Positions 21-15,741 of a stretch of DNA of 28,144 nucleotides are shown piece by piece; position 1 is the stretch's first letter; each line of letters starts with the position of its first letter. The stretch is from assembly GCA_016179005.1 (NCBI GenBank), contig JACOSF010000023.1, positions 1-28,144 of the forward strand. The letters are read 5' to 3'. The notes under the pieces were generated by a model. It worked only from the letters and a program-made list of their open reading frames with translations, did no database searches and was not told the origin of the DNA. The stretch is from Acidobacteriota bacterium. GTDB taxonomy: Bacteria; Acidobacteriota; Terriglobia; Acidiferrales; UBA7541. The position numbers were made by a program, and so were the translations under genes.

Positions 21-923
21 TCATCGTGCGGCGCGCTCCTTTCGCGCGACGAGCCAGCGCTCGCCGGTCCGCAGCAGTCCGTGCAGGCCGAAAAGCAGAG
101 CCAGCGACATCACAAAGATCAGCCAGCCGGAAAACGTGTGGAAGAAGCCCAGGGCTTTGTCCGGATCCCAGTATTGGCCGAGCAGCCCGGTGCCCACGAT
201 GCGCAGGGCATTCGCCGCTACGGCGATAGGAATGGCGCCGAGCGCCAGCAGCACGCGCCGCCAAATCCCGGATTCGAGAAAGTATCCGTAAATGATGGCC
301 AGTGCGCCCAGGGACATCAGCGAGCGAATGCCGCTGCACGCTTCCACCACTTCGAGCGACATGGCCGGAAGATGCAGCACGTTGCCTTCGCGCAGCACGG
401 GCACGCCTAAGGTGACGAGCGTGGAACTGGCCAACTGCGAGGCCAGAAGCTGAAGCGGAAACGCAATTTGATTAAAAATGATCACGGGGATGGGAATCAT
501 CAAGAACAAGAAAGCCCATGGGAAAAACAGCGCGCGGAACCACACCCAGCCGCGGAATTGAATCAGCAGCCCGCCTAACAACAGGACCAGCGAAGAGCGC
601 GAAAGAAACAGCTCTGCGCCAAATACACCCAAAACGAGCACGCCCAACGCCAGCGCGACGATCACCGCTCCCCACCAGGAGGGCTGCTCCTTCAGCTTGG
701 CCAGTCGCTTCCTCTCATTCCAAACCACAAAAGCAGAAAACGCCGGAACGAAAAAGCCATGGGAGAAATTGGGGTCGCTCATCCATTGCTGCACGAGGCG
801 GGCGAGAACTCCATAGTAGAGAAGGGCGATCAGTGCGGCCAGGATGAGCCATTGCCACCAGTCACGGCGCCAGCTTGCAGACATGGCTGTGACATTCATC
901 TGTTGTTCTTTGGCCTGTTCCAT
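21..923 (-). CDS. Exosortase (EpsH/XrtA-type transpeptidase), stand-alone without a fused EpsI domain
   Basis: Multi-pass membrane protein with HGFFVP, VVEACSGIRSL (catalytic Cys), ANALRI (Arg) and FFHTFSG (His). ATG 923 chosen; alternatives are TTG 971, ATG 899 and ATG 884. Confidence 0.93.
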   Translation of the reverse strand: MEQAKEQQMNVTAMSASWRRDWWQWLILAALIALLYYGVLARLVQQWMSDPNFSHGFFVPAFSAFVVWNERKRLAKLKEQPSWWGAVIVALALGVLVLGVFGAELFLSRSSLVLLLGGLLIQFRGWVWFRALFFPWAFLFLMIPIPVIIFNQIAFPLQLLASQLASSTLVTLGVPVLREGNVLHLPAMSLEVVEACSGIRSLMSLGALAIIYGYFLESGIWRRVLLALGAIPIAVAANALRIVGTGLLGQYWDPDKALGFFHTFSGWLIFVMSLALLFGLHGLLRTGERWLVARKERAAR

Positions 924-1131
924 GAGCCGCCTTGTGAGTCGCAGAATACCCAAGCACAAGAAGCTTCGCAATAGCGCGGCCGCATCCTACATCAGTTGAG
1001 AGGCGGAGTTCACTTCATCTTCTTGCTTGGAGTTCCTGCCAGCAACACCAGTCACGGAAACACGTGCCACGGAAATGGAAAACACTTTCCTAAATGACCG
1101 AGGATCCTTCCAAAGAGTTTTTGTTCAATGC

Positions 1132-1354: not shown

Positions 1355-1370
1355 TGGAAGCTGCCTTGCA
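1355..1370 (+). promoter_or_regulatory. Putative sigma54 (-24/-12) promoter of the EPS operon
   Basis: TGGAAGCTGCCTTGCA has GG at 1356-57, exactly 10 nt, then GC at 1368-69 within TTGCA. It lies about 60 nt upstream of ATG 1432. Confidence 0.5.
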
Positions 1371-1431
1371 CATTGTTCCTGTGAAGCGGTTCATTCCGCA
1401 GACAAGGGGATTCTGTTTGCGTGGAGGAGCG

Positions 1432-2406
1432 ATGGAAGTCAGGCAGTCGGACTTGGAGTCAAGCGTGGCTGTAGCCACCACCTTACAAGGCAATCACGCC
1501 TACGTGCCAGCGCTGAGCCCGGCCATGCGCGCGGTGGAGCGGGTGATAGTGGATATCGCACCCACGGACATCCCCGTGCTGATCGAGGGCGAAAGTGGAA
1601 CCGGGAAGGAAGTAGTAGCGGCACAAATCCACCGGCTGTCCATGCGCCGGAGCGAGCCGTTCACCAAGGTGAGTTGTGCGGCGCTGACGCCGGAGTTCTT
1701 CAGCACGCGCGCGCACAACGGAGCGAACGGGTCGGAATCCTGCGGCATCTTCCTGTTGGACGAAATCAGTGAATTGGATCCCGCCTGCCAGCCGAAGCTG
1801 CTGCATGTGCTGCCGGACGGGGACGCACTGCCATTGGAAGGTGCGCTGGCGGCGCTGGGAGCACGGGTGATCTGTACGACGTCGCGAAACCTGGAAGAGG
1901 AGATGCGCGCAGGGCGCTTCCGCGAAGATCTCTACTTCCGGATCAACGGGGTGTGCTTGCGGCTGCCGCCGCTGCGCCACCGCAAGGAAGACGTGCCGGT
2001 GCTGGCGAGCTATTTCTTGTCCAAATACGCGGCGCAGTTCGGGCGGCCGCAGCCAAAGCTGAGCGGGTTCGTGCTGGCGCAGTTCGGCGAATACGACTGG
2101 CCGGGGAACATCCGGGAGCTGGAAAACGCAGTGAAAAAGATCGTGGCGCTGGGAGACGAGCGGGCCGCCGTGGCCGACCTGCGGGCCCGGGCGGCAGCAC
2201 AAGGCAACAGCGGCGGCACAGAGATCCTCTCATTGAAGGATGCCGCGCGGACCGCCAGCCGTCAGGCTGAGCGGGAGCTGATCCTGAAGGTGCTGGGACG
2301 CACGCGCTGGAACCGCAAGCGCGCCGCGCAGGAGTTGCAGATCAGCTACAAAGCCTTGCTCTACAAACTGAAACAGATTGGGTTGGATGACCAGACGGCT
2401 TCCTAA
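1432..2406 (+). CDS. Atypical NtrC/Fis-family AAA+ transcriptional regulator (no receiver domain, no GAFTGA loop)
   Basis: Walker A GESGTGKE, Walker B FLLDEISE, FREDLYFRIN, WPGNIRELEN and a C-terminal Fis HTH (WNRKRAAQELQISYKALLYKLK). Strong SD GGAGGAG at 1423-1429 precedes ATG 1432. Confidence 0.9.
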   Translation: MEVRQSDLESSVAVATTLQGNHAYVPALSPAMRAVERVIVDIAPTDIPVLIEGESGTGKEVVAAQIHRLSMRRSEPFTKVSCAALTPEFFSTRAHNGANGSESCGIFLLDEISELDPACQPKLLHVLPDGDALPLEGALAALGARVICTTSRNLEEEMRAGRFREDLYFRINGVCLRLPPLRHRKEDVPVLASYFLSKYAAQFGRPQPKLSGFVLAQFGEYDWPGNIRELENAVKKIVALGDERAAVADLRARAAAQGNSGGTEILSLKDAARTASRQAERELILKVLGRTRWNRKRAAQELQISYKALLYKLKQIGLDDQTAS

Positions 2407-2424: not shown

Positions 2425-3066
2425 ATGAGGACGAATAACAGAGAGTGGATGTTGTTGGCGGCGGCGCTGCTGTTGCCGCTGGGCGGTCTCTCCGCGCAGG
2501 AAAAAACCAATCCCAAGGAATCCAAAGCGCCTGCGCACGCGGCGGTGGAGCAGACGGCCGCACCCAAGGCGGCGACCGAAGACCCGGCCTATGAGATCGG
2601 CGCCGAGGACCAGCTCAACATCAGCGTGTGGAACGAGCCAAATGTCACGCGGATTGTGCCCGTGCGGCCGGACGGCAAGATTTCGCTGCCGCTGATCAAC
2701 GATGTGCAGGCCGCCGGGCTGACGCCGATGCAACTGGCCATGTCCATCTCGGAAAAGCTGAAGAAATTTATCGCCGATCCGCAGGTGACGGTAATCGTCA
2801 TGGCGATCAACAGCCGGCGGTACTACATTGTCGGGGAAATGACCCGCGCCGGTGCCTTCCCGCTGATGCCCAACATGACCGTGCTGCAGGCGCTGTCGAG
2901 CGCGGGCGGATTCTCGCAGTTTGCGAACCTGAAAGCGATTTACGTGCTGCGAATCGTGGAAGGCAAATCTGTCAAGTTTCCTTTCAACTACAAGCAAGTG
3001 ATCAAGGGCAACCATCCGGAGCAGAATATTGTTTTGAAACCGGGCGACACCATTGTCGTTCCGTGA
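2425..3066 (+). CDS. Polysaccharide export protein (OPX/Wza family; Poly_export plus SLBB), short periplasmic type
   Basis: YEIGAEDQLNISVW, VRPDGKISLPLINDVQAAGLT, LKPGDTIVVP end, SPI-type signal peptide, AAGGAG SD. Confidence 0.93.
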   Translation: MRTNNREWMLLAAALLLPLGGLSAQEKTNPKESKAPAHAAVEQTAAPKAATEDPAYEIGAEDQLNISVWNEPNVTRIVPVRPDGKISLPLINDVQAAGLTPMQLAMSISEKLKKFIADPQVTVIVMAINSRRYYIVGEMTRAGAFPLMPNMTVLQALSSAGGFSQFANLKAIYVLRIVEGKSVKFPFNYKQVIKGNHPEQNIVLKPGDTIVVP

Positions 3067-3076
3067 GGGGGGAGAA

Positions 3077-4564
3077 ATGATGAAGTGGCGAGTGCAAACT
3101 TGGGCTTTGGTTCTCGTCCTGGCGTTGGCTGTCCCCGCCGCCTGGGCGCAACAGCAGAAGGATCCGCGGCTGAACCCGCCGGTGGCGCCGCTGCCGCCGA
3201 TCATGGCCGGCGAGAGCAGCAGCAAGTCGCTGCTGGATGATCCCGCGCCGAACCCGCAGAATGCGCTGAAGGCGGACCAAAGCCCGCTTTCCGGGGCACA
3301 GGATTTCACACTCGGTGTCAAGAGCGGTGGGCGGAGCTTCGTGACGCCGATGATCCGTTTTATGCAAGTCGCGGACAACAACGGGCACTCGGCGACCTCC
3401 AGCAACGACTGGCGCGCCACCGGCACGCTGACCGGGAATCTGTCCTTGAAGCACACCAAGAGCCGATCGCAATTGGGCATTGACTACTCGGCCGGTGGCC
3501 CTGTCTATATGACGACCGGCGCGCTGCGCGCGTCATACCAGCGCCTGGGAATCAGCGAGCAGATCAGCTGGCGCAGGGTTACTCTGCTGCTGGCCGACTC
3601 GATGACGTATCTTCCGGAGTCATCCTTCGGGAGCGGCGGGTTTGGCGGGATTAGCAGCGGAATGATGGGTGGCCTGGGTGGTGGCAGCATTGGCACGGGT
3701 CTGGGCGGCGGCCTGGGTGGCTTGGGCGGGGGCATCAATCCGGGGATCATGCCGGGCCAGTCCATCCTGACCGCAACGGGCCGGCGAATCAGCAACACCG
3801 CGCTGGGGCAATTCCAATACACGCTCAGCCCGCGCGCCTCCATGACGGCCAGCGGCGCCTACGGCCTGCTGCGCTTCCTGGATAGCGGGTTCATCGACAG
3901 CGACAACTACCAGTTTTCAGCCGGATACGACTACAAACTGAACGCGGCAGACACCATCGGGGTGATCTATTCGGTCAGCATGATGCGGTTCGCCGGAATC
4001 AACCGTTCTGCGGATTTCCATCACATCCAACTGGCCTACGGGCGACGCTTGACCGGACGGCTGGCCATGCGACTCTCCGGCGGGCCGCAGATCGGCAATT
4101 TTACCAACCCGGTGGCCGGTTCCAGGAACCGCGCATCGTGGATCCTGCGCAGCTCGCTGATCTACAACATCCGGAACACCAACCTGGGGCTGAACTACTC
4201 GCACAGCACGACTTCCGGTTCAGGCGTCCTGGTGGGTTCAGATGCCGATCGCGCCGATGGTTCCATCAGCCGACAACTGACCCGCATGTGGAGTGGCGGG
4301 CTGGTGTTCGGCTTTGCGCACAACCGCACCATCCAGCAGTTGAATACCTCGGCATTGGAACGCACTGTGAACACCTGGCACGCGGGGTTCAACCTGCAGC
4401 GGCCGCTGTCGCGCAAGGCGAACTTGACGTTTACCTACAACGTGACCGGGCAGAGTGCCAATAACCCGACCGGTTGCACGGGTCTGGCCTGCGGGCGACT
4501 CCCCTTGCGGCATCAAATTGCCCTCGGGATCAGCTGGGGTTTTGGCCCGTACGCGATTGACTAG
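3077..4564 (+). CDS. Outer-membrane beta-barrel protein associated with EPS export
   Basis: Signal peptide (LVLVLALAVPAAWA-QQ), many Ser/Thr/Gly/Tyr-rich amphipathic strands, terminal strand HQIALGISWGF, position directly after the OPX gene. Start is 3077 or 3080. Confidence 0.75.
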   Translation: MMKWRVQTWALVLVLALAVPAAWAQQQKDPRLNPPVAPLPPIMAGESSSKSLLDDPAPNPQNALKADQSPLSGAQDFTLGVKSGGRSFVTPMIRFMQVADNNGHSATSSNDWRATGTLTGNLSLKHTKSRSQLGIDYSAGGPVYMTTGALRASYQRLGISEQISWRRVTLLLADSMTYLPESSFGSGGFGGISSGMMGGLGGGSIGTGLGGGLGGLGGGINPGIMPGQSILTATGRRISNTALGQFQYTLSPRASMTASGAYGLLRFLDSGFIDSDNYQFSAGYDYKLNAADTIGVIYSVSMMRFAGINRSADFHHIQLAYGRRLTGRLAMRLSGGPQIGNFTNPVAGSRNRASWILRSSLIYNIRNTNLGLNYSHSTTSGSGVLVGSDADRADGSISRQLTRMWSGGLVFGFAHNRTIQQLNTSALERTVNTWHAGFNLQRPLSRKANLTFTYNVTGQSANNPTGCTGLACGRLPLRHQIALGISWGFGPYAID

Positions 4565-4625
4565 ACGCGGCCCGAAATCCGAGGCCCGACGGTAGAGTAC
4601 GGAAGAAGAGAGGAAGCGAGGACTC

Positions 4626-6164
4626 ATGCTGGGACATCGTTCCATGTCGGTTGAGGATTATGTGGGGATGCTGCGGCGCCACGTGTGGCAGATCATCATT
4701 CCCATCCTGTTGACGCCGCTTTTGGCCTTGGGGGTGGCGATGCTGCTCCCGGAACGCTATACGTCCCAGACCCTGGTGCTAGTGGAGCAGCAAAAAGTGC
4801 CGACTTCCATCGTGCAATCCACGGTAACGGACGCGCTGAACCAGCGGCTGAGCACAATGCAGCAGCAAATCCTCTCGCGCACGCGGCTGCAGCCGATTAT
4901 CGAGCGGCTAGGCCTGTACAAGGATCAGGTGGCCAACAAGGCGCCAATGGAAGACCTGGTGGCGCAGATGCGGAAGTCCATCACCGTAACCACGGTGAAA
5001 TCGGTGGGGACTTCGCGACAGAACGAAGTGCCGGGGTTTACCATCGCCTTCGAATCGGATCACGCCCGCACGGCGCAGCTCGTCTGCGCAGAAATCCTTT
5101 CCATGTTCATCGACGAAAACATCAAGCTGCGCGCGCAGGCTGCCGATAGCACGACCGAATTCCTTCAGAAACAGGTGGAGGAAGCCAAGCGGAAACTGGA
5201 CGAGAAGGACCAGCGGGTGGCGGAGTTCAAGCGGCGCTACCTGGGCCAGCTTCCCGGCCAGGAACAGTCCAACATGAACATTTTGATGGGACTGTCGCAG
5301 CAGCTGGAGGCCGTCAGTCAACTACTCACGCGCACGCACCAGGACAAGACCTATGCCGAATCGCTGTTGGCACAACAGGTGGCCGCCTGGGAAGCCTCGC
5401 AGCAGGGCAGCAACCCGCAGACGCTGGAAACGCAGCTGACCGCGCTGCAAAACCAGCTCATCACGCTCGAAGCGCGCTACACCCCCGACCATCCCGATGT
5501 GACGAAGATGAAAGCGGACATCGCCCAGCTCAAGAATAAGATTGACGAAGCCAACGCCACGACCAAGGACAAGCCGTCCGACAAGGACAAAGCCGCGGTG
5601 GCCAAGCTCAATGAGCCTGCGCAGATCCAGCAACTGCGAGGCCAGATCCACCAGTACGAAATGACGCTCAAGGAAAAAACGCGCGACCAGGAGCGCATGC
5701 AGGAGCAGATCAAGGTCTATCGCTCCCGCGTGGAGGGCTTTCCTCTCGTCGAGCAGCAGTTCAACGAAATCCTGCGCGACTACAGCACCGCGCAGGGGTT
5801 TTACGATGACCTGCTGAAGAATCGCGGGAAGGCGGAAGTGGCCGGGGACCTCGAGCGCCGCCAGCAGTCCGAACAATTCCGCGTAGTGGACCCGCCGAAC
5901 CTGCCCGTGAATCCGACGTTTCCCAACCAGCTGCTGTTTGCCGGCGGCGGCCTTGGCGGCGGCATCGGCATCGGCTTCGCCATCGCCCTACTGCTCGAGT
6001 TGAAGGACAAATCCATCCGCACCGAGGCGGACATCGAAGCGCTGCTGCAACTGCCCACGCTGGCGCTGGTGCCTTCGGTAGTCGAAGGCAGCAGCCGCAG
6101 CCGGGGCCTGCTGTCGCGCATTCGCAAGACGGAAGAACGGGCCTTGCCCGGGGCGGGAGCCTAG
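4626..6164 (+). CDS. Polysaccharide co-polymerase / chain-length determinant (Wzz/GumC, Wzc N-terminal type)
   Basis: N-terminal TM followed by PERYTSQTLVLVE, a long periplasmic coiled coil, FRVVDPPNLP, and a Gly-rich second TM followed by DKSIRTEADIE. Confidence 0.92.
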   Translation: MLGHRSMSVEDYVGMLRRHVWQIIIPILLTPLLALGVAMLLPERYTSQTLVLVEQQKVPTSIVQSTVTDALNQRLSTMQQQILSRTRLQPIIERLGLYKDQVANKAPMEDLVAQMRKSITVTTVKSVGTSRQNEVPGFTIAFESDHARTAQLVCAEILSMFIDENIKLRAQAADSTTEFLQKQVEEAKRKLDEKDQRVAEFKRRYLGQLPGQEQSNMNILMGLSQQLEAVSQLLTRTHQDKTYAESLLAQQVAAWEASQQGSNPQTLETQLTALQNQLITLEARYTPDHPDVTKMKADIAQLKNKIDEANATTKDKPSDKDKAAVAKLNEPAQIQQLRGQIHQYEMTLKEKTRDQERMQEQIKVYRSRVEGFPLVEQQFNEILRDYSTAQGFYDDLLKNRGKAEVAGDLERRQQSEQFRVVDPPNLPVNPTFPNQLLFAGGGLGGGIGIGFAIALLLELKDKSIRTEADIEALLQLPTLALVPSVVEGSSRSRGLLSRIRKTEERALPGAGA

Positions 6165-6173
6165 GACACGACG

Positions 6174-7163
6174 ATGTACAAAAAGTTTTTTGGCTTGCGC
6201 GAGAATCCGTTCAACGTGAATCCGGACCCGCGCTATCTCTGCCTGAACCGGCACACGCAGGAGGCGCTGTCCTGCCTGACTTACGGCATCCAGAGCCGCA
6301 AAGGGTTCATTTTGCTCACCGGCGAGGTGGGCACGGGCAAGACGACGCTGCTGAACAAGCTGCTGGACTGGCTGCACCGCGAGCGCGTAGCCACTGCCTT
6401 CCTTTTCAACTCGCGGCTGAATGTGACGCAATTTTTCGACTTCATGATGGCCGACTTCGGCATCCCCACCGACCCCAAGCAGAAGAGCCAGGTGTTGATG
6501 AAGCTGAACCATTGGCTGCTGGAGCGCTACCAGGCGGGCGAGACCGCGGTGCTGGTGGTGGACGAAGCACAAAACCTCTCCACGCAGGTGCTCGAGGAGA
6601 TTCGCCTGCTGACCAATCTGGAGACGGCCACCGACAAGCTCCTCCAGATCGTGCTCTCCGGCCAGCCGGAACTGGAATACAAACTGAACCAGCCGCAATT
6701 GCGGCAACTCCGCCAGCGCATCACCCTGCGCTGCAAGACGCACGCGCTTTCCCTGGAGGAAACCGGCAGCTACATCACGAACCGGCTGCAGATCGCCGGG
6801 GCCGACGGGCACGAGATTTTTTCGCCGCAGGCGGTGGAGACCATTCACGACTACGCGCGAGGCATTCCGCGCGTGACCAACTTGTTGTGCGAGCACTCCC
6901 TGATCAGCGCGTTTGTAGACCAGCAGTGTCCCATCACCGGAGCCACCGTGGACGAAGTGGCCCGGGAGTTCCAGTTGCACGAAGTTGAACCGAATGCTCA
7001 GCCGATCGAAGAAGACGAGCCGAGCGGAGAAAACCGGCGCCTGATGGAGGCGCTGCAAAGTCTGGTGACGCTGGTGGACCACCTGCGCCGTTCGGACGCT
7101 TCCCCGCAAACCACGAGGAAAGGAAGTTATGAGCCGCATTCACGAAGCATTAAAGAAAGCTGA
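6174..7163 (+). CDS. ExeA-like AAA ATPase (exosortase/PEP-CTERM-system-associated type)
   Basis: MYKKFFGLRENPFNVNPDPRYL start, Walker A GEVGTGKT, Walker B LVVDEAQNL, LQIVLSGQPEL, LRQRITLR, GIPRVTN. Confidence 0.9.
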   Translation: MYKKFFGLRENPFNVNPDPRYLCLNRHTQEALSCLTYGIQSRKGFILLTGEVGTGKTTLLNKLLDWLHRERVATAFLFNSRLNVTQFFDFMMADFGIPTDPKQKSQVLMKLNHWLLERYQAGETAVLVVDEAQNLSTQVLEEIRLLTNLETATDKLLQIVLSGQPELEYKLNQPQLRQLRQRITLRCKTHALSLEETGSYITNRLQIAGADGHEIFSPQAVETIHDYARGIPRVTNLLCEHSLISAFVDQQCPITGATVDEVAREFQLHEVEPNAQPIEEDEPSGENRRLMEALQSLVTLVDHLRRSDASPQTTRKGSYEPHSRSIKES

Positions 7164-8061
7164 ACAGGAACGCAGCGGCAACCCCCGTCCGCCCGAAGAG
7201 ATCCTGGCGCCGGTGGAGTTTCCGGAGGCCGGTGCGCTGCACCGCCCGGCGGAGACTCGCGCCATCGTGTCCGCGGCCGTGGAAACCTCCGACGGGATGA
7301 CCTTTGACATGATCCGGGAGCGTTGCCGAGCCACCTCGTGGAGCTTCGACCCGCGCACGGTTCTGTTCGGCACTCCGCGCCCCGGCGAACAGAAGGCGCG
7401 GCTTGGCACCGAAGAGTTCCGGACGCTGCGCTCGCGGCTGTACCAGATCCGGGAACGGCAGCCCTTGAAGACGGTGCTGGTGACCAGCGCCCTGCCGGCC
7501 GAGGGAAAGACTTTTGTCGCCGCCAACCTCGCGCAGGTGATTGTCCGGCAGCACGAGCGTCGCGCCCTGCTGATCGATGCGGACCTGCGGTGGTCCCGCT
7601 TGCACCTGTCGTTGGGCACCTCGCTGAAGCCGGGGCTTACGAATTATCTCACCGGCGACGCAGACGAGTTCTCCATCATCCAGCGCGGGGCCTACGAGAA
7701 TTTGTTCTTCATTCCTGGTGGCAGCCCTTGCTCCAACCCTGCAGAACTGATTGCCAGCGGCAAGCTGGAGTCTCTCCTGCGGCGTGTGGCGCCGCTGTTT
7801 GATTGGGTGATCATCGATTCGCCGCCGGCCGTGCCCGTCTCCGACTCGAGCCTGCTCGCGGACATGTGCGACGGCGTGCTGATGGTGGTGCGCTCAGCAG
7901 TGACCCCGTACGACATGGCGCAGCGCGCCGTCCAGGAATTCCGCGAAAAGCACCTGGTCGGCGTGGTGCTCAACGATGTGGAGCCCGGCTCCGGCTACAG
8001 CTCGTATTACTACCACTACTACCACGGGCGTTCCGGCGTGAACGGCAAAGGCAAGGGATAG
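7129..8061 (+). CDS. Bacterial tyrosine kinase (CpsD/CapB family)
   Basis: EEFRTLRS, Walker A SALPAEGKT, A' LLIDADLR, B VIIDSPP and a C-terminal Tyr cluster YSSYYYHYY. Overlaps the ATPase gene by 35 nt. Confidence 0.93.
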   Translation: MSRIHEALKKAEQERSGNPRPPEEILAPVEFPEAGALHRPAETRAIVSAAVETSDGMTFDMIRERCRATSWSFDPRTVLFGTPRPGEQKARLGTEEFRTLRSRLYQIRERQPLKTVLVTSALPAEGKTFVAANLAQVIVRQHERRALLIDADLRWSRLHLSLGTSLKPGLTNYLTGDADEFSIIQRGAYENLFFIPGGSPCSNPAELIASGKLESLLRRVAPLFDWVIIDSPPAVPVSDSSLLADMCDGVLMVVRSAVTPYDMAQRAVQEFREKHLVGVVLNDVEPGSGYSSYYYHYYHGRSGVNGKGKG

Positions 8062-8067
8062 AGGATC

Positions 8068-9444
8068 GTGGTCCGTCTCTTCAACGTCTACTACCCGGCT
8101 CGAACCCTGGTGCTGATCGCCGGGGAAGCGATAGTGGTGTGTCTCTCCTTCCTCGCGGCGGTGTTCGTGCAGCTTGGGCCGGACTCCTACATCGCTCTGA
8201 ACTACGAGGGCGGCTTCCTCAAGATTTTCAGCGTCAGCGGCCTGGCGATGCTCTGCGCGTACTTCTTCGACCTGTACGACTTTCAGCGGTTGCCCTCGCG
8301 TGGCGAAACCTATTTCCGCGTGCTCATGCAACTGGCCACCATGTCCTTCCTACTGGCGGCGGTGGCTGTGCTCTTCCCGAACTTCATGGTTGGGAAGGGC
8401 GTGTTTCTGATGGGCCTGGTTTTCCTGACGTTTACGATGATCGCCTGGCGGGCGATGTACGGGTGGATGCTGCGGCAGCCGTTCCTGCGGGAGCGCGTCT
8501 ACGTGTTGGGCGGCGGCGAACGCGCCCAGCGGCTGGTACACGCGCTGCGCACGCGCCACGAGTTGGGCATGGACGTGATCGGGTGGGTGGGCGCCATGGG
8601 CAACGGCTCGCTGACGCGCGAAAACCTGTCCCAGGCGTTGCTGCCGCTGCGCGACGCCAAAGCGGTGGACCGCGTTATCGTGGCCCTCTCCGACCGCCGC
8701 GGCACCATGCCGGTGCGCGAGTTGCTCGATCTTCGCTTGAGCAATGTGAAGGTCGAAGAAGCCACCGGCCTGCTGGAGAAAATCGACGGCAAGATCGCCG
8801 TAGAAGAGTTGCACCCGAGCTGGCTGATTTTCTCAGAAGGATTCCGCCTGAACGCCTCCATCATTTTAGGGCGCCGCGTGATGTCGCTGCTGATTTCCGC
8901 AATGCTGCTGGTCCTGGTGCTGCCGCTGCTCCCGCTCATCACGCTGCTGATCAAGCTGACCTCGCCGGGTCCCGTGCTCTATAAGCAGAAGCGCGTAGGG
9001 CGCAACGGCAAGATTTTCTTCTGCTACAAATTCCGCACCATGCGCGCGGACGCCGAGGCGGACACCGGCCCCACCTGGGCGGGAGACGACGACCCCCGCA
9101 TCACCAGAATCGGCCGCATCCTGCGCAGCGCGCGTTTGGACGAGATCCCGCAGCTCTGGAATGTCTTCAAGGGGGACATGGGTTTCGTCGGCCCGCGTCC
9201 AGAGCGCCCCGAATTTGTCGAATGGCTCAGCCGCGAGATTCCCTACTACCACTTGCGGCACTTGGTCCGCCCTGGCATCACCGGGTGGGCCCAGATCAGC
9301 TACCAGTACGGCGCATCGCTCGAGGAGTCCAAAGAAAAACTGCAGTACGACCTGTATTACATGAAGAACATCTCGATGGCGTTTGACCTCTACATCATTT
9401 TCCTGACCATCAAGATTGTGCTCTTCGGCCGGGGGGCGAAGTGA
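8068..9444 (+). CDS. Priming undecaprenyl-phosphate glycosyl(phospho)transferase (exosortase-system sugar transferase type)
   Basis: N-terminal TMs, a Rossmann-like middle region, and a C-terminal Bac_transf domain (KFRTM, DDPRITRIG, LDEIPQLWNV, GPRPERP, RPGITGWAQI). GTG start. Confidence 0.93.
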   Translation: MVRLFNVYYPARTLVLIAGEAIVVCLSFLAAVFVQLGPDSYIALNYEGGFLKIFSVSGLAMLCAYFFDLYDFQRLPSRGETYFRVLMQLATMSFLLAAVAVLFPNFMVGKGVFLMGLVFLTFTMIAWRAMYGWMLRQPFLRERVYVLGGGERAQRLVHALRTRHELGMDVIGWVGAMGNGSLTRENLSQALLPLRDAKAVDRVIVALSDRRGTMPVRELLDLRLSNVKVEEATGLLEKIDGKIAVEELHPSWLIFSEGFRLNASIILGRRVMSLLISAMLLVLVLPLLPLITLLIKLTSPGPVLYKQKRVGRNGKIFFCYKFRTMRADAEADTGPTWAGDDDPRITRIGRILRSARLDEIPQLWNVFKGDMGFVGPRPERPEFVEWLSREIPYYHLRHLVRPGITGWAQISYQYGASLEESKEKLQYDLYYMKNISMAFDLYIIFLTIKIVLFGRGAK

Positions 9445-10559
9445 AGTGGGTGTTCTGGCTCTCGGTGCTGTTGATCGGGTACAGCTACGCGGGTTTTCCG
9501 TTGTGGCTCTACCTGCGCAGCCACTGGCGGGCCTTCCCAGTCCTCCGCGAGCCGATTCTCCCGTTTGTTTCGATTGTCATGGCCGTCCGCAATGAGGCGC
9601 AGGCGCTGCCCGGCAAGCTCAAGAACCTAGAGGAGCTGGATTACCCGCGCGACCGCTATGAGATCATCGTCGCGTCCGACGCCTCCACGGATGCGACCAA
9701 TGCACTGCTCGCGGAGCGGGCCGGTGCCCGCTTGCGCCCCGTGTTCTGCGCCGAACATGTGGGCAAGGCATCCGCTTTGAACCAGGGAATTCAGGCGGCC
9801 CGCGGCGAAATCGTGCTGTTCACCGACGCACGGCAGATGCTGGAAAGCGAATCCGCGCGCCGGCTGGTTGGGCGTTTCGCCGACCCCGCGGTTGGCTGCG
9901 TCAGCGGCGAACTGATGTTGGGCGAACCGGTTCCCGCGGAGCGGCACGAGGGAGTCGGCCTGTACTGGAAGATGGAGAAAAAGATCCGGGAGTGGGAAGG
10001 AGCGGCCGGTTCGGTGGTCGGCGCCACGGGGGCGATCTATGCGGTGCGCAAGAAATACCTTGTGCCGCTGCCCGCCGGAACGATCCTCGACGACGTCTAT
10101 CTTCCGCTGCACGTCGTGCGGCAGGGCGGGCGCGTCGTCTTTGAGCCTGGCGCGCGCGCCTGGGACAACTTCACCGACACTCCGGCGCGCGAATTTCGCC
10201 GCAAGGTGCGCACGCTGACCGGCAACTATCAGCTTTTGCAACTCGCTCCCTGGCTGCTCACGCGGGAGAACCCGGTGCGGTTCGAGTTCATCAGCCACAA
10301 ATTGCTGCGCCTGTGCGTGCCGTTCGCGCTGGTGGGCGCGCTCGGCAGCTCCCTGCTGCTGGCGCATCCGTTTTACAAAGCGGTGGCCGTGGCCCAACTG
10401 GCGCTCTACTCCCTGGCGCTGCTGGCGCTGGTGCGGCCCGCGCCGGGGCTCGCTGGCCGACTGGGCAATGTGGTCTTCAGCTTCTTGATGTTGAACACCG
10501 CGGCAGTCGTTGCGCTGGTCAATTTTGTAACGGGAAAGAAGGAGGTCTGGGTGCGGTGA
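9441..10559 (+). CDS. Glycosyltransferase family 2 (CESA/IcaA-like, membrane anchored)
   Basis: VSIVMAVRNE, DASTD, GKASALN, LFTDA, GATGAIYAVR, LDD, EFRRKVRT. GTGA overlap with the upstream gene. Confidence 0.9.
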   Translation: MKWVFWLSVLLIGYSYAGFPLWLYLRSHWRAFPVLREPILPFVSIVMAVRNEAQALPGKLKNLEELDYPRDRYEIIVASDASTDATNALLAERAGARLRPVFCAEHVGKASALNQGIQAARGEIVLFTDARQMLESESARRLVGRFADPAVGCVSGELMLGEPVPAERHEGVGLYWKMEKKIREWEGAAGSVVGATGAIYAVRKKYLVPLPAGTILDDVYLPLHVVRQGGRVVFEPGARAWDNFTDTPAREFRRKVRTLTGNYQLLQLAPWLLTRENPVRFEFISHKLLRLCVPFALVGALGSSLLLAHPFYKAVAVAQLALYSLALLALVRPAPGLAGRLGNVVFSFLMLNTAAVVALVNFVTGKKEVWVR

Positions 10560-10564
10560 CGCCT

Positions 10565-10583
10565 AGCGGGCTTCGGCCACGCT
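10565..10583 (+). other. Intergenic RNA hairpin with a cUUCGg tetraloop
   Basis: AGCGGGC-TTCG-GCC(A)CGCT: 7 bp stem with one bulged A and no immediate U-tract. Confidence 0.5.
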
Positions 10584-10674
10584 GAGCGAGCTGCGTTTAC
10601 CCTGAAAACGCGCCTTGGCAACCACCGTCGTAGCGAAAAATGGGACCAAGAAGGACACCGGCCAGGCGGAGGGG

Positions 10675-12036
10675 ATGACCTTCGCCTACTTCGGACTTGT
10701 CGCCTTCCTCTTCGTTTACTGCGCGCGGCCGAGCGATTGGACGGGGCTCCGCCTTTTCCCTTTTGCCAAGATCACCGCAGCACTCGCGATTTTGGGACTG
10801 CTCGCGGCCTTGTTTACGGGAGGCCGTAAGTTCCTGCACTTGCCCAAAGAAGTGATCCTGCTTTTCTTTCTCTTTGCACAACTCTGCCTGTCGGTGCCGT
10901 TTGCCGTCTGGCCGGGAGGAAGCTTCGAAACGGTGTTTGTGGACTTCTCCAAAGTAATCCCAATCGTCATCCTGATTGTGGCCACGGCCACAACAGCGGC
11001 CAGATTGAGGATTCTGTTCACTGTCCAAACCGCCTCCGTCGCCCTCATCGCATTGGTTACACTGCTGGGCAGATCCCAGCAGGTAGGCCTGTCCCAAAGC
11101 TCAGATATTGTCCGATTCGGTGGAGCGATTGGAGGAATCTTCGGGAATCCGAACGATTTCGCCTGGGCGCTGAGTCTGATGTTTCCTTTGGCCTTTGCCT
11201 TGATGCTGCGCAGCCGGAACATATTGACGAAGTCCCTCTGGGTAAGCGCGATGATCATGATGGTTATTGCTGTGATGAAGACTTATTCGCGCGGCGGCGT
11301 AATCTGCCTAATCGTGTCAGGTGGAATGACGATGTGGCTTTTCGGAGTGCGGGCCCGGAGGCCACATCTGGTCATTGCCGCTGCAATCGCCGGTCTGCTG
11401 CTTCTAGCCGTAGCCGCACCACCAGGCTTCTTTGGGCGAGTCGCATCCACGACGGATTGGGCGGAGGACGATACGGGTTCTGCATGGGCCCGAAAGCATC
11501 TCTTCATTTTGAGTTTAAAGACGACGATGCAGCATCCCCTGTTGGGCGTCGGACCGGGGAATTTTACAATTGTTTCCGGCTCGTGGCATGGAACCCACAA
11601 CACGTTTACGCAGTTCAGTTCTGAAGCGGGTATCCCAGCGATGTTGCTGTTTGTTGCCATCCTCTGGTCTTCCATGCGAAACCTGCGCATGGTGCGCAAG
11701 TGGACTTCCGAGAAAGACGACCTGTGGATCCTGTCCGCCGGATTGAGCGCCAGCTTTGCAGGTTTCGTCGTGGGTGGCTTCTTTGGAATGGCGGCGTACC
11801 ATTTCTTCGCCTACTTCATGATCGGCTATTCCTGTGCGCTCTATAGGCTCGCGCAGAACGCGCGGGGTGAATGCGATCCCGATCAACTGGCGTCGAAGAA
11901 ATCAAGCATCGCGCGGAATTCTCTGCGCAGGGAAGAGCCCGGTCCCAACGGGGCGCCCGATTATTCCCGGGTCATGCGGCGGAGCTGGCGCACCACCGTC
12001 GGGCCTCTGCCGGAACGAATGCGCTCTGGAGGCTGA
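10675..12036 (+). CDS. Wzy polymerase / O-antigen ligase family protein
   Basis: About 10-12 TMs, IFGNPNDFA, TYSRGG, HPLLGVGPGNF, THNTFTQFSSEAG. Start uncertain (ATG 10675 or TTG 10615). Confidence 0.85.
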   Translation: MTFAYFGLVAFLFVYCARPSDWTGLRLFPFAKITAALAILGLLAALFTGGRKFLHLPKEVILLFFLFAQLCLSVPFAVWPGGSFETVFVDFSKVIPIVILIVATATTAARLRILFTVQTASVALIALVTLLGRSQQVGLSQSSDIVRFGGAIGGIFGNPNDFAWALSLMFPLAFALMLRSRNILTKSLWVSAMIMMVIAVMKTYSRGGVICLIVSGGMTMWLFGVRARRPHLVIAAAIAGLLLLAVAAPPGFFGRVASTTDWAEDDTGSAWARKHLFILSLKTTMQHPLLGVGPGNFTIVSGSWHGTHNTFTQFSSEAGIPAMLLFVAILWSSMRNLRMVRKWTSEKDDLWILSAGLSASFAGFVVGGFFGMAAYHFFAYFMIGYSCALYRLAQNARGECDPDQLASKKSSIARNSLRREEPGPNGAPDYSRVMRRSWRTTVGPLPERMRSGG

Positions 12037-12125
12037 ACCGTGTGCGGAATCGCAAGCGTCCGCGTGCTTGATTCCATGGGCGGTCCCGTCTGTCCCGACC
12101 TAATCGCAGGAGAGGGAAGTCTCTT

Positions 12126-14474
12126 TTGAGTCCATTGCTTGACCAGAGCGCACGCGACGCGGCAAGTCGTAGCGATCCTCGCAGCGGCCGCGCACGCGTG
12201 TTTTTGATGAGCAACAACTTGGAGACTGGCGGCAGCGAACGGCAGTTCGCGCTGATGGCCCAGGCGCTACGCGACGGCGTCTTCGAAGTCGAGCTGGGCT
12301 GCCTGGGGCGCAGCGGCGCGTTCCTCGAAGGGTTGGGGCAGATCAGTGAATTCGGCGCCGGCGGGAGCTTTCTGAGTGCGAAGGCGCTGAAGTCGCGCAT
12401 CGCGCTGGGGCGACACCTGCGGCGTCAAGGAATTGCCGTGGCCCACTCGTTCGACTTCTATACGAATCTGATGCTGATCCCCACGGCGCGGCTGGCGGGC
12501 GTGCCGGCAGTGATCGGCAGCCAGCGGCAGCTCGGCGATTTGCTCCCGCCAATGAAGCGCGCGGTGCAGGCGCGCATCCTCAGGCTTTGCGACCGCGTGG
12601 TGTGTAATTCGCGCGCGGCAGCGGACCTCTTGCGCGCGCAGGGTGTGGCCGAGCGCAAGCTGGCCGTGATTCCCAATGGGCTGCCGGCGGAAGCGTTTGC
12701 AGAAACGCCACCGGCGCTGCCGCGCCAACCGGGCGTGCTGCGCGTCGGCGTGCTGGCACGCATGAACGAGCCGGTGAAGAACCATCCGGTGTTCCTCCGC
12801 GCCGCGGCGCGGCTGCTGGAAAAATTCCCGGCGCTGGAAATCCTGCTGGTGGGTGACGGAGCGCTGCGTCCCGGCCTGGAAAAGCTGGCTGCCGAACTGG
12901 GTTTTGGAGCGCGCGCGCGGTTCCTCGGCGACCGGCGCGACGTGCCGGCCGTGCTGGCCTCGATGGACATTTCCGTACTTCCCTCGCACTCGGAGAGCCT
13001 CTCCAACGCAATCATGGAATCCATGGCTGCGGGCAAGGCGGTGGTGGCCTGCCGCGTCGGCGGCAATCCGGATCTGGTGCGCGAAGGGGAGACGGGCCTG
13101 CTGGTGCCGCCGAATGACGAACAGAGCCTGGCCGATGCCATTGAGCATTTGCTCTCGCGGCCAGAGTTGATGCGGGAATGGGGCGTGCGCGGAAAAGAAA
13201 TTGCGCTTGCCGGCTTCACAGTGGACCGCGCACGAGAACGCTATGAGCAGCTCTATACCGATGTGCTGGTGGATAAAGGGAAGTTGGCACGCCCGGCGCC
13301 GCGCACAGCGGATTTTTCAGCCGCGCGGCCGCTGCGCGTGGCGATTGTGGGCCCGTCGATGCAAATGATTGGCGGTCAATCGGTGCAGGCAGACCTGCTG
13401 CTGCGGAACTGGCAGAACGACCCCGCCGTGGACGTCCGCTTCATCCCTGTGGACACGCCATTTCCGCGCTGGCTCCAGTGGGCCAGCCGAATTCCGTTCC
13501 TGCGAACGGCAATCCGGACGCCGTTGTATCTGAGGTCGCTCTACCGCGGGCTCGCTGACGCCGATCTTGCGCACATCTATGCGGCGTCTTACTGGTCGTT
13601 CTTGCTCGCGCCGGCGCCGGCGCTGTGGGTGGCGAAACGCTTGGGCAAGCGAGCGCTGATCAATTATCACAGCGGCGAGGCGCGCGACCACCTGGAGAGG
13701 TGGCGCTCGGCGCAGCGCGTGTTGCGGCGGGCCGACGGGCTGGCCGTGCCCTCGCAGTTTCTGGCCGATGTGTTCCAGCAGTTTGGCCTGCAAGCGCGAG
13801 TGGTGCCCAACCTGGTTGACCTGGCGCAGTTTTCCTGGCGGCCGCGGCAGCCGCTGCGCCCGCGGCTGGTCTGCACGCGAGGATTCGAACCGTACTACAG
13901 CGTGGACGTGGTGGTGCGGGCGTTCGCTGAGGTGAAGAAGACGGTTCCCGAGGCTAGCCTGTGCCTAGTGGGTGGCGGGTCGCACGAACAGAAGATTCGC
14001 GTCCTGGTGCAGGAACTCGGACTGGCGGACGTCGAGTTTACCGGCCCGGTCTCGCGGGAAAGTATCGGCCGCTACTACAATTCCGCGGACATTTTTATCA
14101 ACGCGTCCTGGCTGGACAACATGCCTGGGTCGATTCTGGAGGCCTTCACCTCGGGTACGGTGGTGGTCAGCACGGCGCCGGAGGGGATCCGCTACCTGGT
14201 TACGCATGAGAAGACCGGGCTGTTGAGCGATCCGGGCGACGTGCACGCGCTGGCGGCCAACGTGCTCCGCGTGTTGCGCGAGCCGGAACTCGCCGCGCGC
14301 ATCGCGCGCAATGCCTGTGAGGAATCGAAGCGCTACCACTGGGATTCCGTGCGCTCCGAGTGGCTGGCGGTTTACCGCTCCGCGCTGGGTCTCCCGCCGC
14401 TCGCCGCCGGTGAGCCTGCGCTCGGGGCCGAGCCGCAAGAATCCGAAAGGAACCTGCTCCAGTGCCGCCCGTGA
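12126..14474 (+). CDS. Tandem GT4-GT4 glycosyltransferase fusion (782 aa)
   Basis: Two complete GT-B units: GGSERQ...ESLSNAIME (E-x7-E) and GGQSVQ...DNMPGSILE (D-x7-E). The TTG start follows AGGAGAGGG; the next ATG would cut the first beta strand. Confidence 0.88.
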   Translation: MSPLLDQSARDAASRSDPRSGRARVFLMSNNLETGGSERQFALMAQALRDGVFEVELGCLGRSGAFLEGLGQISEFGAGGSFLSAKALKSRIALGRHLRRQGIAVAHSFDFYTNLMLIPTARLAGVPAVIGSQRQLGDLLPPMKRAVQARILRLCDRVVCNSRAAADLLRAQGVAERKLAVIPNGLPAEAFAETPPALPRQPGVLRVGVLARMNEPVKNHPVFLRAAARLLEKFPALEILLVGDGALRPGLEKLAAELGFGARARFLGDRRDVPAVLASMDISVLPSHSESLSNAIMESMAAGKAVVACRVGGNPDLVREGETGLLVPPNDEQSLADAIEHLLSRPELMREWGVRGKEIALAGFTVDRARERYEQLYTDVLVDKGKLARPAPRTADFSAARPLRVAIVGPSMQMIGGQSVQADLLLRNWQNDPAVDVRFIPVDTPFPRWLQWASRIPFLRTAIRTPLYLRSLYRGLADADLAHIYAASYWSFLLAPAPALWVAKRLGKRALINYHSGEARDHLERWRSAQRVLRRADGLAVPSQFLADVFQQFGLQARVVPNLVDLAQFSWRPRQPLRPRLVCTRGFEPYYSVDVVVRAFAEVKKTVPEASLCLVGGGSHEQKIRVLVQELGLADVEFTGPVSRESIGRYYNSADIFINASWLDNMPGSILEAFTSGTVVVSTAPEGIRYLVTHEKTGLLSDPGDVHALAANVLRVLREPELAARIARNACEESKRYHWDSVRSEWLAVYRSALGLPPLAAGEPALGAEPQESERNLLQCRP

Positions 14475-15631
14475 ACGACATCATCTGCTTCGCCAACGAT
14501 TGGTCCGGCGACCCGCTGAGCAAGAAGCACATCATGCTGCGGCTGGCGCGGCGCCACCGCGTGTTGTGGGTGAACTCCATCAATAACCGGCGGCCCCGTC
14601 TGGCGCAGAAAGACTTTCGCCGGATTGTGGAAAAGTTAAAGGCGTTTCGCAGCGGGCTGAAACAGGTCGAAGAAAGAATCTGGGTGCTCTCCCCGGTCTT
14701 CGTGCCCTTTCACGGCAACCGCACGGTGCGCTCGTTCAACCGCTGGCTGCTGGGCTTTCAAATCCGCCGCGCGCTGCGCAGCCTGGGCCTGACCGATCCG
14801 ATTACGTACACGTTTGTCCCCACGTCGGCCGACGTGGTGGGCACGCTCGGCGAGAAATCGGTGGTGTATCACTGCGTGGACGAATATTCCGCGTTCAGCG
14901 ATGCGGCCGGGGAAGTGCGCGCGCGGGAGAATGAACTGCTGCGCAAGTCCGATTTGGTGCTGGTCTCCGCGTCGGACCTGCTGAAGACGAAGCGCGAGCA
15001 CAATCCCAAGACGTTTCTCGTGACGCACGGCGTGGATTATGAGCACTTCCGCCGCGCCACCGACGAGGCCACGCCCGTTGCACCCGAACTGCGCGACCTG
15101 CCGCGGCCCATCCTCGGTTTCCACGGGCTTATCGCCGACTGGGTGAATCTGCCGCTGCTGGGCGAATTGGCGCGGATGCGGCCGCAATGGTCCATTGTGC
15201 TGGTCGGGCGCGCGGACACCGATTTGTCGCCGATTCAGGGCCTGCCCAACGTCCATGTGCTAGGCCACCGACCGTACGCCAGGCTGCCGGAGTATTTGCG
15301 CGGGTTTGACATTGCCTTGCTACCGTTCGTGGTGAACGAGCTGACGCTGTCGGCGAACCCGCTGAAGCTGCGGGAATATCTCGCGGCGGGGTTGCCGGTG
15401 GTGGCGGCGCCGCTGCCGGAAATCGCGCGGTTCGAAGGGCTGGTCACGCTGGCGTCCACGGCCGCGGAGTATATGAGCGCGATCGAATCGCTGCTTGCGC
15501 GGAAGCAAGTTGGGCCGTCGCGCGAGCGGTCCGACCAGGTGGCCGGCGAATCCTGGGACGGAAAAGTCGCGGAGATCGAAAAGTTGCTTGCCTCAGTCTT
15601 ATCCAATCACAGCGGACACCGTCCCCAGTAG
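14462..15631 (+). CDS. GT-B glycosyltransferase (TuaH-like / Glyco_trans_1_4)
   Basis: FANDW..., VVYHCVDEYSAF, HGVDYEHF, NPLKLREYLAAGLPVV. GTG start at 14462 or 14471, overlapping the upstream stop. Confidence 0.88.
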   Translation: MPPVNDIICFANDWSGDPLSKKHIMLRLARRHRVLWVNSINNRRPRLAQKDFRRIVEKLKAFRSGLKQVEERIWVLSPVFVPFHGNRTVRSFNRWLLGFQIRRALRSLGLTDPITYTFVPTSADVVGTLGEKSVVYHCVDEYSAFSDAAGEVRARENELLRKSDLVLVSASDLLKTKREHNPKTFLVTHGVDYEHFRRATDEATPVAPELRDLPRPILGFHGLIADWVNLPLLGELARMRPQWSIVLVGRADTDLSPIQGLPNVHVLGHRPYARLPEYLRGFDIALLPFVVNELTLSANPLKLREYLAAGLPVVAAPLPEIARFEGLVTLASTAAEYMSAIESLLARKQVGPSRERSDQVAGESWDGKVAEIEKLLASVLSNHSGHRPQ

Positions 15632-15741
15632 TACCCAATCCGCCGACGAACTTCGAAATGGTGACTGCAAGCGTGAGATGATTCTGTGCGATACGCCCAA
15701 CCGGATGAGACGGCGCCGGGGTGAGGCCGAGAACAAAGAGA

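Follow-up and report, generated by a model that had tools for sequence, protein, structure and literature searches.

The gene at positions 1432–2406 of the window (the whole 28,144-nt stretch of DNA that was analysed) opens the exosortase-linked exopolysaccharide (EPS) operon of a groundwater Acidobacteriota bacterium, and encodes a paralog of the sigma-54 enhancer-binding proteins (EBPs), P0001, from which both the sensory domain and the sigma-54-contacting GAFTGA loop are missing. Judged from its sequence, P0001 cannot activate sigma-54 in the conventional way, as the entire L1 hairpin is deleted family-wide, which backs the proposal of the initial annotation that the protein should not activate sigma-54. 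P0001 is viewed here, with about an even chance of this being right, as a DNA- and nucleotide-binding, non-activating paralog which would modulate, and probably dampen, the sigma-54 activation of its own operon.

Locus and gene product

The regulator gene and its neighbours were assigned as follows.

21–971, minus strand: divergent XrtA-type exosortase gene, left neighbour (Pfam Exosortase_EpsH, E 5.6e-74)
1423–1429, plus strand: ribosome-binding site GGAGGAG, read from the sequence
1432–2406, plus strand: loop-less, sensor-less EBP paralog P0001, ATG start, 324 aa (Pfam, phmmer, AlphaFold2, Foldseek)
2425–3066, plus strand: XrtA/PEP-CTERM-type polysaccharide export gene, first structural gene of the operon (Pfam Poly_export and SLBB; NCBIfam TIGR03027, partial)

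A longer frame, starting from TTG at 1354, was rejected, as it was not backed by the homologs (311–337 aa) and would overlap the predicted −24/−12 promoter. The gap between the regulator and the export gene is 18 nt, no terminator was found between the two, and the same-strand genes run on to about 21.6 kb, in agreement with the initial view of the gene as the head of the EPS operon. The left neighbour scored 208.2 with the NCBIfam exosortase A model (cut-off 208).

The gene order was shared by six independent contigs (60–89% identity), and also, as far as they extend, by three short contigs from distant representatives in which Walker B is dead, i.e. divergent exosortase, loop-less gene, Poly_export, an unannotated protein of outer-membrane size, Wzz-type co-polymerase, XrtA-associated ATPase, BY-kinase, and priming glycosyltransferase. 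The export gene was the right neighbour in all nine fetched contigs, and the exosortase the left neighbour in seven of them, the short contigs L076 and L077 showing none. Positions 3053–4564 of the window encode a 503-aa protein with no Pfam or NCBIfam match, located at the same position in all fetched loci.

In P0001, Pfam identified the domains Sigma54_activat (residues 29–175), AAA_lid_14 (182–260) and HTH_8 (277–315). The match to PF00158, the sigma-54 interaction domain of clade-6 AAA+ proteins (E 5.8e-33), reached about 113–114 bits, when the 12 canonical EBPs of the same genome reached 213–252 bits. No NCBIfam model was above its cut-off for P0001, and the best were partial matches to NifA, AtoC, FlbD and PrsR. 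Upstream of the AAA+ core there are just 28 residues, unconserved and of low confidence in the AlphaFold2 model, with no regulatory domain among them, as is characteristic of sensor-less EBPs and close to the about 30 residues counted initially. Three longer homologs have N-terminal extensions, in which no Pfam domain was detected and which probably reflect over-called starts.

The following motifs were located in the coding sequence.

1588–1611, plus strand: Walker A GESGTGKE, residues 53–60 (G56, G58 and K59 invariant in 103 family members)
1693–1746, plus strand: remnant linker, residues 88–105, G/N/S-rich, in place of the L1/GAFTGA hairpin (ortholog-variable, with no consensus residue)
1750–1764, plus strand: Walker B FLLDE, residues 107–111, intact in the window (from the sequence)
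1912–1941, plus strand: arginine-finger region GRFREDLYFR, residues 161–170 (R164 and R170 at least 90% conserved)
2098–2121, plus strand: sensor II WPGNIREL, residues 223–230 (W223 and N226 invariant, P224 and G225 at least 90% conserved)
2260–2376, plus strand: Fis-type helix-turn-helix (HTH), recognition helix ISYKALLYKLKQ (Pfam HTH_8, residues 277–315)

Walker A, Walker B, REDLYFR, WPGNIREL and the HTH, earlier read as intact, were thus all found in the translated sequence, and orthologs conserve them. In the recognition helix, residues I304, S305, Y306, K307, L309, L310, Y311 and K312 were at least 90% conserved across the loop-less family.

The loop-less family

The segment from CAAL to FLLDE comprises residues 82–111 (nt 1675–1764), exactly the interval in which the initial annotation had reported the GAFTGA segment absent and about 15 residues missing. 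The distance from Walker A to Walker B was 54 residues in P0001 versus 68 in the canonical EBPs yielding a spacing, which sets the deficit at 14. In phmmer alignments to the solved ZraR, NifA and NtrC4, two gaps fell exactly over ELFGHEKGAFTGA and the next strand, and the 14-residue deletion takes out the hairpin by which EBPs contact sigma-54. P0001 was the sole outlier in its own genome, the 12 other EBPs all carrying GAFTGA, GAYTGA, GSFTGA or GSFTDA.

No GAFTGA-like motif was present in P0001 or in any of its 120 closest homologs (58–91% identity, ca. 300–340 aa, Acidobacteria where named), which all lacked the loop. The linker varied among orthologs both in sequence and in length (Walker A to Walker B spacing 49–61). 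An exhaustive search over 50%-identity cluster representatives added about 65 distant short proteins without the loop, and all GAFTGA-bearing matches scored below the best of these. A tree built from 105 AAA+/HTH cores placed every loop-less protein in one clade with a support of 100, apart from the two canonical clades, which comprised the response-regulator EBPs (RR-EBPs) and the short EBPs, respectively.

A clear ortholog was found in about 28 of the 150 sampled genomes of the window’s class, and none in ca. 180 genomes of other Acidobacteriota classes with P0001 as the query; a single match outside the class, a 487-aa frame, was set aside as probably canonical. All members of the family recovered with this query thus came from the window’s class of Acidobacteriota. 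Intact GAFTGA in close orthologs had been named in advance as the sign of recent decay, and it was seen in none of the 120 homologs, because by its distribution in the compared sequences the loop deletion is old and conserved.

The same conservation makes it hardly credible that P0001 is a functionless, decaying relic. The signature loop is gone, and in relatives Walker B as well, but the reading frame is open and conserved in the 120 homologs at the identities given above, the HTH and P-loop are near-invariant, and synteny is fixed across the class, by which the relic reading is already refuted.

The AlphaFold2 model of P0001 (mean pLDDT 87.5) retained the AAA+ fold, the lid and the HTH. Residues 87–99 formed a continuous helix, with lower confidence at its linker end, where the L1 hairpin normally interrupts, and the L2 region was a low-confidence loop with no family consensus. 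By Foldseek, the best solved match was Brucella NtrX, followed by ZraR, NtrC1, FleQ, PspF and VpsR.

P0001 and the subclade of the window have the full ATPase set of Walker A, Walker B, arginine fingers and sensor II. At the switch-asparagine position, which is variable across the family, P0001 has S. The P-loop (Walker A) was near-invariant in the loop-less family, and the interface arginines were conserved. Of the 42 clade members sampled, in turn, 20 kept the Walker B residues DE and 22 had lost them, which amounts to six or more changes along the tree, whereas DE was kept in 62 of the 63 rows outside the clade. Residues for ATP hydrolysis are therefore under relaxed selection in the clade. 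In loci L075 to L077, Walker B DE was lost and the sigma-54 promoter was still upstream. Since such ATPase-dead members still sit behind sigma-54 promoters, the conserved function of the family would depend on DNA binding, and probably on nucleotide binding, with no need for hydrolysis, and cannot be the remodelling of sigma-54. Members of the window’s subclade may hydrolyse ATP, because DE is retained, and their complete ATPase set suggests an ATP-dependent activity beyond passive competition, a point against the modulating role favoured here.

It is very improbable that P0001 is an unconventional sigma-54 activator, making the contact through another surface. The gene does lie behind a sigma-54 promoter and its ATPase motifs are intact in the window, but no conserved substitute for L1 or L2 was present, the ATPase-dead relatives hold the same position and promoter, and GAFTGA is reported to be the sigma-54 contact, most mutants of which do not activate (PMC7175178).

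Promoter, palindromic box and candidate activators

Two regulatory elements were identified upstream of the operon, and a third one on another contig (C243) of the same assembly.

1077–1090, no strand assigned: candidate enhancer/operator palindrome GGAAAACACTTTCC, GGAAA-N4-TTTCC, 278 nt upstream of the −24 element
1355–1370, plus strand: sigma-54 type −24/−12 element TGGAAGCTGCCTTGCA, with TGG-N8-TTGCA spacing, 77 nt before the start codon
C243 (L056), 4962–4975: perfect 16-bp palindrome GGGAAAACGTTTTCCC, same box type as 1077–1090, preceding a histidine kinase (HK)/RR-EBP operon

The pattern TGG-N8-[TG]TGC was present 40–110 nt before the start codon (median 77 nt) in 33 of the 37 loop-less loci, against a background rate in the same DNA of 0.011 expected per interval of this kind; the four other loci had one-base variants or an uncertain start codon. 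A sigma-54 promoter requires a loop-bearing activator, and therefore some other EBP must open 1355–1370. In addition to its 12 canonical EBPs, the genome has an rpoN fragment, the last ca. 31 residues of sigma-54 (end of the RpoN box) being encoded at a contig edge (C252, locus L001, positions 1–93). The assembly (1.63 Mb in 356 contigs) is 60% complete and fragmented, and absences there therefore mean little. Between the palindromic box and the −24/−12 element, positions 1120–1160 of the window form an AT-rich tract, which may be a bending site of the type common at sigma-54 promoters.

The extended form of the palindromic box reads aaa..GGAAAa..tTTTCC..ttt. The exact box was found in 11 of 36 orthologous upstream regions, with at most two in shuffled sequences, and in 23 of 37 regions when one mismatch was allowed. 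In most loci having both elements, the box lay 127–166 or 235–299 nt upstream of the −24 element. In G033 and G087, two complete genomes of the same family, the box before the EPS operon was present in degenerate form only, which counts against the favoured reading.

The own genome has eight exact copies of the box versus about one expected. Six of these are inside long ORFs and were not counted as sites, and the two intergenic copies are the one at 1077–1090 of the window and the one that precedes the HK/RR-EBP operon at position 4962 of contig C243. The called start of the C243 kinase (4960) is probably too far upstream, as the kinases of relatives are shorter. In the relatives, the box was enriched in the intergenic DNA of the RR-EBP/short-EBP loci (17 copies versus 3 expected).

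The RR-EBP encoded on C243 is the best paralog of P0001 in its own genome, where the recognition helix ISYKALLYK is common only to these two, the RR-EBP being canonical. The same unusual helix was present in all 20 RR-EBPs of relatives. Among 17 short EBPs, the helix lay inside the examined C-terminal stretch in 16, and all of these had ISYRAL(L/I/F)YK. The pair of RR-EBP and short EBP was conserved across 18 further genomes. The conserved sigma-54 promoter and the same-helix RR-EBP lend real support to one of the options raised initially, in which P0001 would pair or compete with a true EBP at the promoter immediately before the gene.

G033 and G087 have an RR-EBP ortholog of 76% identity, separated by a few kb from the EPS operon downstream, within the following regions.

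L055 (G087:C1), 4401–14131: regulatory island upstream of the EPS operon
L054 (G033:C1), 4282–15687: regulatory island upstream of the EPS operon

In these islands, a sigma-54-type −24/−12 motif precedes a GGDEF gene and another one a PilZ gene. A kinase/RR-EBP pair, a CBS protein, a second PilZ and a short sensor-less EBP (GSFTGA, helix ISYRALLYK) are encoded there too, as is the loop-less protein, whose gene has a promoter of its own. The G033 locus (L054) additionally contains an ECF sigma factor gene. Loci L051 (G095:C356) and L052 (G149:C394), from a different family of the class, had been taken as orthologs, and were dropped from the counts as short EBPs carrying GSFTGA; a sigma-54-type motif is located 83–92 nt before their short-EBP starts, which hints at an EBP cascade.

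Sharing of the helix also bears on an improbable alternative, in which P0001 would be a required positive subunit in mixed rings with the loop-bearing RR-EBP or short EBP on the enhancer, in positive autoregulation, providing DNA anchoring or ATP binding when its partner provides the L1 loops, as in HrpR/HrpS. The three paralogs do share the helix and are clustered in the complete relatives, the interface arginines are conserved, and sensor-less EBPs such as HrpR/HrpS are a known group (PMC7175178). On the other hand, the repeated loss of Walker B fits an obligate motor subunit poorly, and the short EBP/RR-EBP pair was also found in genomes with no detected loop-less ortholog. HrpR and HrpS, moreover, both carry the loop.

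The gene content of the islands suggests that c-di-GMP signalling belongs to the circuit. In P0001 itself, the initial annotation had considered a FleQ-like site. In FleQ, c-di-GMP is contacted by R144 of LFRS, R185/N186 of KExxxRN, and the ExxxR motif (PMC7288161). In a manual register set from GxS and Walker A, with no computed alignment, R144 corresponded to A23 and R185/N186 to A64/Q65 of P0001, at positions variable in the family, and the FleQ-type site was thus absent at two of the three motif positions, ExxxR being the third. An input of c-di-GMP at some other point of the circuit is plausible, because the island next to the operon in relatives holds GGDEF and PilZ genes.

Proposed role and relation to known regulators

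In the proposed circuit, the EPS operon would be transcribed from the sigma-54 promoter at 1355–1370, and opened by a genuine EBP, for which the histidine-kinase-controlled RR-EBP on C243 is the best candidate and the short GSFTGA-bearing EBP encoded next door in the complete relatives the second. The loop-less protein would be the first product of the operon, and is expected to bind the same GGAAA-N4-TTTCC boxes, because it has the same recognition helix. By competing with the activator or by joining its rings, it would limit or shape activation as a built-in feedback; the negative sign of this effect is presumed, dampening being most simply the form that modulation would take. The divergent exosortase promoter may be a further target of P0001. 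The more specific proposal of a natural dominant-negative EBP, which would owe its transcription to the same sigma-54 promoter that it restrains, and would occupy enhancer boxes or poison rings, is tentative and stands below an even chance.

Atypical EBPs without GAFTGA are established (PMC6158489; 10.1101/2023.06.06.543975), and P0001 resembles them in combining homology to EBPs with absence of the sigma-54 contact motif. VpsR of V. cholerae, NtrX of Brucella, the NtrC of Rhodobacter capsulatus and Caulobacter, TyrR/PhhR, HupR and HsfA have the same AAA+ core and Fis-type HTH, with the loop missing. TyrR/PhhR, HupR and HsfA keep an N-terminal receiver or sensory domain. VpsR has a degenerate Walker B, like some members of the loop-less family, and also governs a biofilm polysaccharide locus. 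The cited atypical EBPs keep their N-terminal receiver or sensory domain and are reported at sigma-70 promoters, whereas the loop-less family has no N-terminal domain. Unlike in the atypical EBPs, the loop-less gene comes first in a conserved sigma-54 transcription unit, and the helix of P0001 is common to canonical EBPs of its own genome. The family forms a separate clade, and is orthologous to none of these atypical EBPs. PexR of Myxococcus was rejected as a precedent, since this protein activates sigma-54 and has GAFTGA.

The main rival explanation, although somewhat unlikely, follows from these proteins and is compatible with a modulating role. P0001 would then be a sigma-70-type factor like VpsR, TyrR, NtrX or the Rhodobacter and Caulobacter NtrC, i.e. 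a nucleotide-dependent DNA-binding oligomer, which activates or represses targets such as the divergent exosortase or PEP-CTERM cargo promoters independently of its own sigma-54 promoter. The cited characterised GAFTGA-less EBPs all work at sigma-70 promoters (PMC6158489; 10.1101/2023.06.06.543975), the closest structure is that of an atypical EBP (NtrX), the decay of Walker B resembles VpsR, and the box at 1077–1090, in the shared intergenic region, lies about 106 nt from the start of the exosortase ORF. However, no conserved sigma-70 promoter was identified, the single consensus match in the region 900–2500 being hardly more than the mean of 0.4 in shuffles, and the rival leaves unexplained both the sharing of the helix with two canonical EBPs and the retention of the gene in a transcription unit under sigma-54. 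Against the modulating role, in turn, the same sequence data are also compatible with P0001 acting positively or at sigma-70 promoters. After the sigma-70 role, the co-activating subunit, the unconventional activator and the dead relic are progressively less likely.

P0001 is also comparable to several systems of sigma-54 control. Sensor-less EBPs (PspF, HrpR/HrpS) make up group 4, and their control is exerted in trans or through the amount expressed, not through a sensor of their own (PMC7175178). Like P0001, they consist of the AAA+ core and HTH only. PspF and HrpR/HrpS carry GAFTGA and activate sigma-54. Their loop is functional, whereas in P0001 it is deleted.

Sigma-54 control of PEP-CTERM systems has been described in Proteobacteria for PrsK/PrsR (PMC1569441, Haft 2006; TIGR02915), with which the locus has in common the exosortase/EPS genes, sigma-54, a response regulator of the NtrC type, and a −24/−12 motif accompanied by an upstream activator box. 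P0001 scored 189.9 with the PrsR model (TIGR02915, cut-off 502.6), over model positions 143–442 only and with no receiver domain, and the RR-EBPs of C243 and G033 (380.5 and 372.7, respectively) were also below the cut-off. The described Prs system has no counterpart of the loop-less third paralog.

Anti-activators of sigma-54 EBPs include FleN (for FleQ), PspA, HrpV and NifL. They are alike in the role proposed here, as they restrain an EBP at the promoter it serves, but they are of unrelated folds and bind the EBP, whereas the putative modulator P0001 is itself an EBP paralog with the helix of the activator.

A Desulfovibrio regulome paper contained nothing on loop-less EBPs, a full-text literature search found no paper describing the loop-less family, and no regulator study on exopolysaccharide control in Acidobacteriota was found in the literature search. 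New in relation to the known systems are the loss of both sensor and loop, the conserved sigma-54 unit, the helix common to two canonical paralogs, and a class-wide clade of its own. The homologs bear the pipeline labels ‘sigma-54 interacting transcriptional regulator’ or ‘AtoC’, and because loop-less proteins are labelled as sigma-54 regulators, domain-based EBP counts in regulon predictions miscount.

Sigma-54 promoters are usually seen as on/off switches with one activator, the known brakes being unrelated proteins, e.g. FleN. If the proposed role is true, the loop-less family represents a self-limiting circuit made from the activator’s own fold, class-wide in Acidobacteriota, and a different way to shape sigma-54 output. 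Should P0001 be such a modulator, its family would also offer a way into exopolysaccharide control in the abundant Acidobacteriota of soil and groundwater.
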